From: Escherichia coli
GTDB lineage: Bacteria; Pseudomonadota; Gammaproteobacteria; Enterobacterales; Enterobacteriaceae
DNA length: 64,000 nucleotides
Direction: 5' to 3' (one strand)
Assembly: GCF_036507355.1 (NCBI RefSeq)
Contig: NZ_AP027877.1
Below the pieces are notes generated by a model. The model saw only the letters and a program-made list of their open reading frames with translations, was not told the origin of the DNA and ran no database searches. Positions 24,750 through 46,887 of this stretch are shown one piece after another (within the stretch, counting starts at the first letter, position 1; each line of letters starts with the position of its first letter). Both the position numbers and the translations under genes were made by a program.

Positions 24750-25598
24750 ATGGCGACATACCTTATTGGCGACGTTCATGGTTGTTACGATGAACTGATC
24801 GCATTGCTGCATAAAGTAGAATTTACCCCTGGGAAAGATACCCTCTGGCTGACGGGCGATCTGGTCGCGCGCGGCCCGGGTTCGCTGGATGTTCTGCGCT
24901 ATGTGAAATCCTTAGGCGACAGCGTACGTCTGGTGCTGGGCAATCACGATCTGCATCTGCTGGCGGTATTTGCCGGGATCAGCCGCAATAAACCGAAAGA
25001 TCGCCTGACACCGCTGCTGGAAGCGCCGGATGCCGACGAGCTGCTTAACTGGCTGCGTCGCCAGCCTCTGCTGCAAATCGACGAAGAGAAAAAGCTGGTG
25101 ATGGCCCACGCAGGGATCACGCCGCAGTGGGATCTGCAGACCGCCAAAGAGTGCGCGCGCGATGTAGAAGCGGTGCTGTCGAGTGACTCCTATCCCTTCT
25201 TTCTCGACGCTATGTACGGCGATATGCCAAATAACTGGTCACCGGAATTGCGGGGGCTGGGAAGACTGCGGTTTATCACCAACGCCTTTACCCGTATGCG
25301 TTTTTGCTTCCCGAACGGTCAACTGGATATGTACAGCAAAGAATCGCCGGAAGAGGCCCCTGCCCCACTGAAACCGTGGTTTGCGATTCCTGGCCCTGTC
25401 GCTGAAGAATACAGCATCGCCTTTGGTCACTGGGCATCGCTGGAAGGCAAAGGTACGCCGGAAGGTATTTACGCGCTGGATACAGGCTGTTGCTGGGGCG
25501 GTTCATTAACCTGCCTGCGCTGGGAAGATAAACACTATTTTGTCCAGCCGTCGAACCGACATAAGGATTTGGGTGAGGGAGAGGCGGTCGCGTCTTAA
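24750..25598 (+). CDS. apaH: Diadenosine tetraphosphatase
   Basis: 282-aa product [16 protein letters not shown]... with metallophosphatase motifs GDLVARG and GNHD. Confidence 0.94.
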
Positions 25599-25909
25599 AT
25601 CCCGTCGAGCATAAAATCTAATGCTCCTTTAATCAACGTTCGGTGCGCGCTGGCATCGCAAAATTTCGTTCCCAGCGCGTTAACTGGAACAGTTGCAGTC
25701 TCATGCGTCATGAGCACATATTCTTTGCCGTCTACCAGTAAAAGGATTGGGTTAAGCCGTTCTGGTGGGCGAATACGGATAAATCGTTCAATAGGTGTTA
25801 ATGGAATAACAATACGGCGATTAATCACACCAATAATGTCGCTGGTAACATCGATAACAAAGGGAAACGCGGCGTTCCTGCTGCGACTGCGGTATACCGT
25901 AAATTGCAT
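25595..25909 (-). CDS. ccdB: CcdB-family toxin (chromosomal ccd locus)
   Basis: 104-aa product [27 protein letters not shown]... similar to F-plasmid CcdB (MQFKVYTYKRES...DVQSDIID...); immediately downstream of ccdA with a 2-bp gap; stop overlaps the apaH stop. Confidence 0.8.
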
Positions 25910-25911
25910 CG

Positions 25912-26145
25912 CTAGAAGCTCCGGTACTCATCAGAGAAACATCCGGTTTCATCAGCCAATTGATTTAACGCAGCGATAGCTTCTGCGTTCTCTTCACGCC
26001 AACGTGTTGCTGCATGTTTTTTAAGTTCAGCATTGAGCGCAACCGTAAGGGTGGCGCTCATATTTAAGCCTGCATCACGAGCGCGATTGACTAACTCACG
26101 GTCGACGGTGACGGTCACACTTTGTGTGGTACGTTTTGCAGTCAT
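25912..26145 (-). CDS. ccdA: CcdA-family antitoxin (chromosomal ccd locus)
   Basis: 77-aa product with ...SVTVTVDRELVNRAR...RWREENAEAIAALN... resembling F-plasmid CcdA; small acidic C-terminus; operon with ccdB. Confidence 0.78.
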   Translation of the reverse strand: MTAKRTTQSVTVTVDRELVNRARDAGLNMSATLTVALNAELKKHAATRWREENAEAIAALNQLADETGCFSDEYRSF

Positions 26146-26230
26146 GATATCGTGCTCCTGTACAATTTATACGTCTAGTATACACGGATATCTGCACGTA
26201 TCAGTGATGCCGGAATTCTAATATACAAAA

Positions 26231-28756
<2,526 letters not shown>

Positions 28757-45738: not shown

Positions 45739-46887
45739 TTACTTAGCGGTTTTACGGTACTGCTCAATTAACTCGATAAAGTGGTCGAACAACGGCGCGG
45801 CGTCGTGTGGACCTGGGCTGGCTTCCGGGTGCCCCTGGAAGCTGAACGCCGGTTTATCGGTGCGATGAATGCCCTGTAACGTACCGTCGAACAGGGATTT
45901 ATGCGTGACACGCAGGTTTGCAGGTAATGTTGCTTCGTCCACCGCAAAACCGTGGTTCTGGGCGGTGATCATCACCACGTTTTTCTCCACATCTTTAACC
46001 GGATGGTTGCCGCCGTGGTGACCAAATTTCATTTTGACAGTCTTCGCACCGCTCGCCAGCGCCAGCAGCTGATGACCGAGACAGATGCCGAATACCGGAA
46101 TATCGGTTTCGAGGAATTTCTGGATGGCGGTAATGGCGTAATCGCACGGGGCCGGGTCGCCAGGACCGTTGGAGAGGAAGATGCCGTCTGGATTCATTTT
46201 CAGCACATCTTCCGCAGAAGTTTGCGCCGGAACGATGGTCAGGCGACAGCCTCTATCCACCAGCATCCGCAGGATGTTGCGCTTGGCACCAAAATCATAA
46301 GCCACGACGTGGAACGGCAGCTCGTCTTCTTTTTTCGCTTCTGGCAGGCCGCCGGTCAACGTCCAGCTCCCTTGTGTCCAGCTATAGGCTTCTGCGGTGG
46401 TCACTTCTTTTGCCAGATCCATGCCGTTCAGACCTGGGAACGCGCGGGCTTTTTCTAACGCCAGCGCCGCATCCGGGTTATCGCCCGCGATAATGCAGCC
46501 ATTCTGTGCGCCTTTCTCGCGCAGTAAACGCGTCAGCTTACGGGTATCGATATCGGCAATCGCCACGATGTTATGGCGTTTCAGGTAAGAAGAGAGGTCT
46601 TCGGTATTACGGAAGTTGCTGGCAATCAGCGGCAGGTCGCGAATCACCAGACCTTGTGCATGTACCTGAGAAGATTCTTCATCGGCGTCATTAGTGCCGA
46701 CATTGCCAATATGGGGATAAGTAAGAGTAACGATTTGACGAGAATAGGAAGGATCAGTGAGGATTTCTTGATAACCGGTCATTGAAGTATTGAAAACGAC
46801 TTCCCCAACCGCCGAACCTGTTGCCCCTATGGCCCGACCGTGAAACTGGGTTCCGTCTTCCAGAACCAATAGCGCTGACTTAATCAA
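45739..46887 (-). CDS. carA: Carbamoyl-phosphate synthase small (glutaminase) subunit
   Basis: 382-aa product from non-ATG (TTG) start [17 protein letters not shown]...; 17-bp gap to carB. Confidence 0.93.

Follow-up and report, generated by a model that had tools for sequence, protein, structure and literature searches.

A known chromosomal ccdAB toxin-antitoxin pair of the ccdO157 type between folA and apaH of Escherichia coli

The folA-apaH locus and its closest described counterpart

The closest described system is ccdO157 of E. coli O157:H7, which is located in the spacer between folA and apaH (PMC7232551, PMC3184786 and PMC2654758, in passages that cite Wilbaux 2007 and Mine 2009). Secondary literature describes the O157 CcdB as a gyrase poison that acts through GyrA, with somewhat attenuated toxicity (PMC10886550). 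In the secondary sources PMC7326226 and PMC2654758, ccdO157 is reported to cause no post-segregational killing, to stabilise no plasmid and to give no protection against large deletions. Secondary sources also report a species-wide decay of its toxin gene (PMC2654758). [quoted passage not shown] PMC7354431 states that CcdA of F neutralises the O157 CcdB and that CcdA of O157 does not neutralise the F CcdB, whereas in PMC10886550 the chromosomal CcdA is described as able to protect against the F CcdB.

Here we analysed a 64,000-nucleotide stretch of E. coli DNA, called the window in the following. Between folA and apaH it carries the already known chromosomal ccdAB pair of the ccdO157 type, intact and otherwise ordinary (Table 1).

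Table 1. Features of the folA-apaH locus, in positions of the window
Feature	Position	Strand	Basis
ccdA, antitoxin, 77 aa	25912-26145	-	ORF listing and sequence
ccdB, predicted gyrase poison (toxin), 104 aa; undisrupted ORF with C-terminus ...FMLDGI	25595-25909	-	ORF listing and sequence
folA-ccdA spacer, 85 nt, presumed ccd promoter/operator	26146-26230	-	Promoter scan, repeats, palindrome count
TTAA, overlapping stops of the convergent apaH (+) and ccdB (-)	25595-25598		Sequence
Segment with no K-12 counterpart; K-12 has about 67 nt of spacer with a REP here	25600-26221		MG1655 alignment
apaH flank, 282-aa form, ending ...GEGEAVAS	24750-25598	+	
folA flank, upstream of ccdA on the same strand	26231-26710	-	

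An initial annotation of this DNA had described two minus-strand ORFs of 77 and 104 amino acids, 2 bp apart, and an overlap of the ccdB stop with the convergent stop of apaH; both statements agree with the ORF listing and the sequence. The two bases between the ccdA stop and the ccdB ATG are 25910-25911, and within the shared tetranucleotide the TAA of apaH occupies 25596-25598 and that of ccdB, read on the minus strand, 25597-25595. The antitoxin gene comes first and is followed on the same strand, after the 2-nt gap, by the toxin gene, as is typical for ccd-type type II systems, and folA lies 85 nt away from ccdA on the same strand. The in-frame folA ORF of the window reaches upstream to 204 aa (26231-26845), and folA of O157:H7 Sakai (ECs_0051, positions 628-1218 of locus L010) is annotated with 591 nt, compared with 480 nt in other records. 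This looks like a discrepancy in start codon annotation and not like a real extension.

The folA-apaH spacer measures 632 nt in the window and 77 nt in K-12 MG1655. The window thus has 555 nt more, in agreement with the approximately 0.55 kb that had been noted as missing from K-12. In the alignment, homology to MG1655 stops at 25599 and restarts at 26222, so that 622 nt stand for about 67 nt of the K-12 spacer. The replaced K-12 sequence contains a REP-like palindrome, which is absent from the window. The module had initially been called inserted between apaH and folA; site and order hold, but strictly the REP spacer is replaced, so that the change is not a plain insertion. At the 3' end of apaH (25560-25598) a 6-nt indel separates the 282-aa form of the window from the 280-aa form of K-12, which ends ...GEAAAS. 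The length difference suggests that the haplotype boundary lies inside apaH and not at its stop codon, with one empty-site genome compared. All retrieved loci that carry or once carried ccd have an apaH of 849 nt (282 aa); K-12, the sole empty-site genome in this comparison, has 843 nt.

Over 636 nt, which include the 85-nt spacer, the module is identical to that of O157:H7 Sakai at 634 positions. The Sakai genes have the same arrangement and are annotated as 'CcdA-like' (ECs_0052) and 'CcdB-like' (ECs_0053). Both loci share the folA-apaH site, gene order, gene lengths, 2-nt gap, a promoter spacer that is 100% identical and the CcdA protein. They differ only by a synonymous GCA/GCT change in ccdA codon 54 and by ccdB codon 44, where AGC (Ser) in Sakai is ATC (Ile) in the window (S44I). 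The suggestion that this is a known accessory module, described for O157:H7 at the folA-apaH position, is thus borne out by the Sakai alignment as well as by the literature. At this locus, the common single-residue allele S44I is the sole departure from the published description. The discovery value is small: publications from 2007-2009 onwards already describe the element and its site as well as its relation to F ccd and its decay across the species, and annotation of the genes by PGAP is routine.

Judged on its gene order, family membership, fold, near-identity to the O157:H7 module and distribution in the population, the pair is very probably an intact chromosomal type II toxin-antitoxin operon of the ccdO157 type. 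By analogy with the F and O157 literature, its transcription would start at a sigma-70 promoter within the 85 nt between folA and ccdA. By homology, a CcdB dimer would bind the dimerisation domain of GyrA and trap gyrase in the cleavage complex, and the disordered C-terminal part of CcdA would bind CcdB and neutralise it. As in F, chains of CcdA and CcdB on operator hexamer palindromes may repress the operon in a ratio-dependent manner, and CcdA is expected from the F and O157 literature to be labile to Lon. On the chromosome the module would represent a small islet, gained horizontally, that is not known to have a function for the host.

Distribution, decay and the I44 allele

We surveyed 5426 complete E. 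coli genomes, a set biased towards clinical clones, and found the ccd module at the folA-apaH site in 2024 of them, always on the chromosome and in single copy. The PGAP labels of its genes are 'CcdB family protein' and 'CcdA family antitoxin'. The empty K-12-type site of 77 bp is present in 2858 of the 5426 genomes (53%), and by subtraction about 540 genomes have other content at the site.

Lesions of ccdB were counted with short queries specific for each junction; for a 13-nt deletion, this was a 36-mer spanning the junction, which seeds on the deletion only. The nonsense mutation G95* was found in 413 genomes (the ST131 lineage), the 13-nt deletion in codons 61-65 in 259, a +1 frameshift at codon 40 in 134, among them the type strain ATCC 11775 and NU14, and a mere remnant of ccdB in three. 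As the lesion counts are lower bounds, ccdB is disrupted in at least 809 of the 2024 copies (at least 40%). Eight modules were additionally aligned by hand: ccdA has three variable sites, none of them disruptive, and is intact in all eight, and ccdB has 13 SNP sites and three independent inactivating lesions. The survey finds, in current genomes, the decay of ccdO157 that the literature describes.

Two further loci differ more strongly from the window. In NZ_AP027764.1 (4109120-4109850) the last 72 nt of ccdB remain, abutting apaH, and the remaining module has given way to a gene of 204 aa with the annotation 'IS1096 element passenger TnpR family protein'. The folA-apaH site of another strain (NZ_AP045770.1, 4213200-4214580) holds a diverged orphan CcdA of 59 aa and no ccdB. 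This CcdA is 44% identical to that of the window, has a 14-aa internal deletion and is encoded next to a DUF4291 gene and a hypothetical gene on the opposite strand. It suggests that a second, independent ccd lineage was once present at this hotspot.

For positions 15001-40000 of the window, the best match among complete RefSeq E. coli genomes is 99.2% identical (strain A30, from a baboon), and none is better. By itself, the ccd module shares 100% identity with those of strains TR01 and UCPROB-002. Taken together, the identities over 25 kb and over the module appear as the mosaic pattern typical of recombination at this locus.

The intact state of ccdA in all eight sampled copies, including those of three lineages with a dead toxin, two of which have a CcdA identical to that of the window, could mean that the module persists through a benefit to the host, for example anti-addiction immunity against plasmids with related ccd systems or a contribution to drug tolerance, and is not a neutral or selfish islet. 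Plasmid-borne relatives with the same lengths of 77 and 104 aa exist, with 60-73% identity in CcdB, and Gupta 2017 is cited for higher survival under stress in PMC7354431 and PMC10886550. However, the preserved ccdA may simply reflect a recent loss of ccdB, and the sample consists of eight sequences. Furthermore, 53% of the genomes thrive with the empty K-12-type site, the O157 CcdA is reported not to neutralise the F CcdB (PMC7354431), and ccdO157 is reported neither to stabilise plasmids nor to stop deletions (PMC2654758 and PMC7326226). We regard a host benefit as unlikely. The narrower proposal, in which the chromosomal CcdA would be kept as anti-addiction immunity against the 77/104-aa ccd plasmids of Hafnia, Klebsiella (IncFII) and the IncL/M group and not against F, is in our view very unlikely. 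If it were true, in about 37% of E. coli the islet would influence the set of plasmids able to establish addiction.

The preferred reading, an intact ccdO157-type operon, places the copy of the window in the intact class, since both its ccdA and its ccdB are undisrupted ORFs. An exact match to a 60-mer with the I44 codon is present in 70 of 1978 genomes, O145:H28 among them, and at least 1000 public contigs encode, under CcdB names, a protein identical to the 104-aa CcdB of the window. Position 44 is variable in the subfamily (Ile, Ser, Gly, Arg or Pro) and is Asp in V. fischeri. In the AlphaFold2 model described below, residue 44 comes directly behind a short helix, opens the 44-54 loop and belongs to a block of lower confidence (41-50). 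Because the position is variable and stands at the start of a low-confidence loop, S44I would be expected to be tolerated. Toxicity does not follow from an intact ORF, as Mine 2009 reportedly describes toxins inactivated by missense changes.

The residues of CcdB equivalent to Trp99-Gly100-Ile101 of F are Asp102-Gly103-Ile104. The Asp is present in all 77/104-aa relatives and is a Thr in V. fischeri, and the C-terminal LDGI is conserved in the subfamily. Trp99 is important for the toxicity of the F CcdB, and the effect of its replacement is given as unknown in PMC7232551. With S44I and with Asp in place of the F Trp99, the CcdB of the window could be attenuated or dead, and the pair intact in looks only, a decaying relic that functions as an antitoxin alone. 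In at least 40% of the copies in complete genomes ccdB is indeed overtly disrupted with ccdA still intact, I44 also occurs in the lineage that later gained the 13-nt deletion, and in secondary sources the chromosomal toxin is described as degenerating and as attenuated in its toxicity (PMC2654758, PMC7354431, PMC10886550). Against this stand the full-length ORF with a conserved LDGI terminus in common with the plasmid-borne relatives, the placement of residue 44 at a variable loop position and the frequency of the allele, which is found on at least 1000 contigs. Moreover, the protein is one residue away from the O157:H7 CcdB, which is described as a toxin neutralised by CcdA in PMC7354431. An attenuated or dead toxin is quite unlikely, and the strain of the window carries a candidate active gyrase poison (I44), where at least 40% of the copies in complete genomes have lost ccdB.

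Family, fold and promoter region

The proteins had been proposed to be homologous to CcdA and CcdB of plasmid F, and a profile search that failed to place them in these families had been named as the finding that would speak against it. Pfam places both proteins practically end to end. CcdB matches PF01845 with an E-value of 5e-31 and 107.4 bits (cut-off 28.6), residues 2-103 aligning to profile positions 1-101 of 101. CcdA matches PF07362 with an E-value of 1.3e-26 and 93.1 bits (cut-off 22.4), residues 8-77 aligning to profile positions 2-71 of 71. CcdA consists of an N-terminal ribbon-helix-helix DNA-binding part and a C-terminal CcdB-binding part (...ETGCFSDEYRSF). A comparison with the F and O157:H7 proteins, which had also been proposed, gave 31% identity to the F CcdA and 35% to the F CcdB. 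The CcdA is identical to the O157:H7 protein WP_000125566.1, and the CcdB, which has the S44I difference from O157:H7, is identical to WP_001160974.1.

The NCBIfam equivalogs for the F-type proteins (NF010264 and NF010262) scored below their cut-offs, with 61.2 versus 147 bits for CcdB and 38.6 versus 100 bits for CcdA. Since these scores are far under the cut-offs and the identities to F are 35% and 31%, the pair is, judged on its sequence, a member of the ccd family and not an orthologue of F ccd.

The PDB sequence matches of CcdB are all CcdB chains, with E-values of 1.2e-16 for V. fischeri and 2.8e-11 for plasmid F, and CcdA matches the F CcdA structure 2adl with an E-value of 9e-6. An AlphaFold2 model of CcdB was built from an alignment of eight sequences (pLDDT 81.7, pTM 0.75) and has the SH3-like barrel with C-terminal helix that is characteristic of the CcdB fold. 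All of the 16 top-ranking PDB fold matches to it are CcdB, with a TM-score of 0.77 and E-values down to 3e-8, and CcdB:GyrA14 complexes are among them. MazF-type folds match at E > 0.01 only. The notion that the two genes are chance ORFs or an annotation artefact in intergenic DNA, for which their small size and nothing further could be put forward, is rejected by the profile E-values of 5e-31 and 1.3e-26, the fold match and the conservation in 2024 genomes.

In the 85-nt spacer, a promoter scan predicted a sigma-70-like promoter with the -35 element CTGATA (26204-26199), a 16-nt spacer and the -10 element TATACT (26182-26177). The -10 element overlaps a perfect GTATAC palindrome (26183-26178), and imperfect copies are found 11 nt downstream (GTATAA, 26172-26167) and upstream (GTATAT, 26226-26221). 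The putative Shine-Dalgarno sequence of ccdA, AGGAG, is at 26159-26155, 9 nt before the ATG.

The operator of F ccd is 113 bp long, and its centre consists of one perfect and two imperfect GTATAC palindromes with a spacing of about 12 bp, on which chains of CcdA2-CcdB2 give ratio-dependent repression (PMC5389731). The likeness of the 85-nt spacer to this operator is suggestive and statistically weak. The spacer contains five perfect 6-bp palindromes, which puts it in the top 0.75% of 85-nt windows, yet against dinucleotide shuffles the P-value is 0.11. Over the whole window GTATAC occurs at chance frequency, with 5 copies observed versus 6.6 expected. The RNA folding of the spacer is not significant (z = -1.5), and Rfam gave no match.

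No intrinsic terminator above chance was found between folA and ccdA, after the stops of ccdB and apaH, or in the K-12 spacer. As no terminators are recognisable, read-through from folA with co-transcription of ccdAB, as well as convergent transcription of ccdB and apaH, is possible.

Comparison with related ccd systems

The ccdAB genes of the F plasmid (NC_002483, ccdA 46340-46558, ccdB 46560-46865) share with the pair of the window the protein families, the antitoxin-first order, the fold and the Gly-Ile end of CcdB; GTATAC-type hexamers are clustered in both promoter regions, a likeness that is statistically weak. In contrast, the F proteins are 72 and 101 aa long instead of 77 and 104 aa, are 31% (CcdA) and 35% (CcdB) identical to those of the window and have Trp99 where the window has Asp. 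F ccd is plasmid-borne, whereas the module of the window is chromosomal, a form that is reported not to mediate post-segregational killing (PMC7326226).

In the plasmid collection, the nearest true plasmid relatives of the CcdB are found on a Hafnia alvei MOBF plasmid (NZ_CP015380, 73% identity) and a Klebsiella aerogenes IncFII plasmid (NZ_CP139388, 71%), followed by an E. coli IncL/M plasmid (NZ_CP048339, 60%), with the F type at 35%. The one 'plasmid' match above 80% is PLSDB entry CP054241.1, an 834-kb E. coli sequence with apaH and a 95% identical ccdB, which is probably part of a chromosome that was entered as a plasmid.

The Hafnia, K. aerogenes and IncL/M modules have the same geometry as the window, namely a ccdA of 234 nt, a gap of 2 nt and a ccdB of 315 nt. 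They also share the C-termini of CcdB, (F)(M/L)LDG(I/V), and of CcdA, GCFSDEYR(S/T)F. These modules differ from the window in being plasmid-borne, in their identities of 60-73% for CcdB and 62-74% for CcdA and in their upstream regions, which cannot be aligned beyond short motifs. Because geometry and C-termini are shared, the chromosomal islet can be assigned to a ccd subfamily of the 77/104-aa type that is found on plasmids as well, consistent with a horizontal origin.

The best PDB match to the CcdB of the window, in sequence as well as in fold, is the chromosomal CcdB of V. fischeri (PDB: 2kmt, 3jrz, 4elz). It was crystallised bound to the GyrA14 fragment (PDB: 4elz, 4ely) and, like the CcdB of the window, has no Trp at the position of F Trp99, its C-terminus being Thr-Gly-Ile. 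The two proteins are 36% identical and lie in different genomic contexts.
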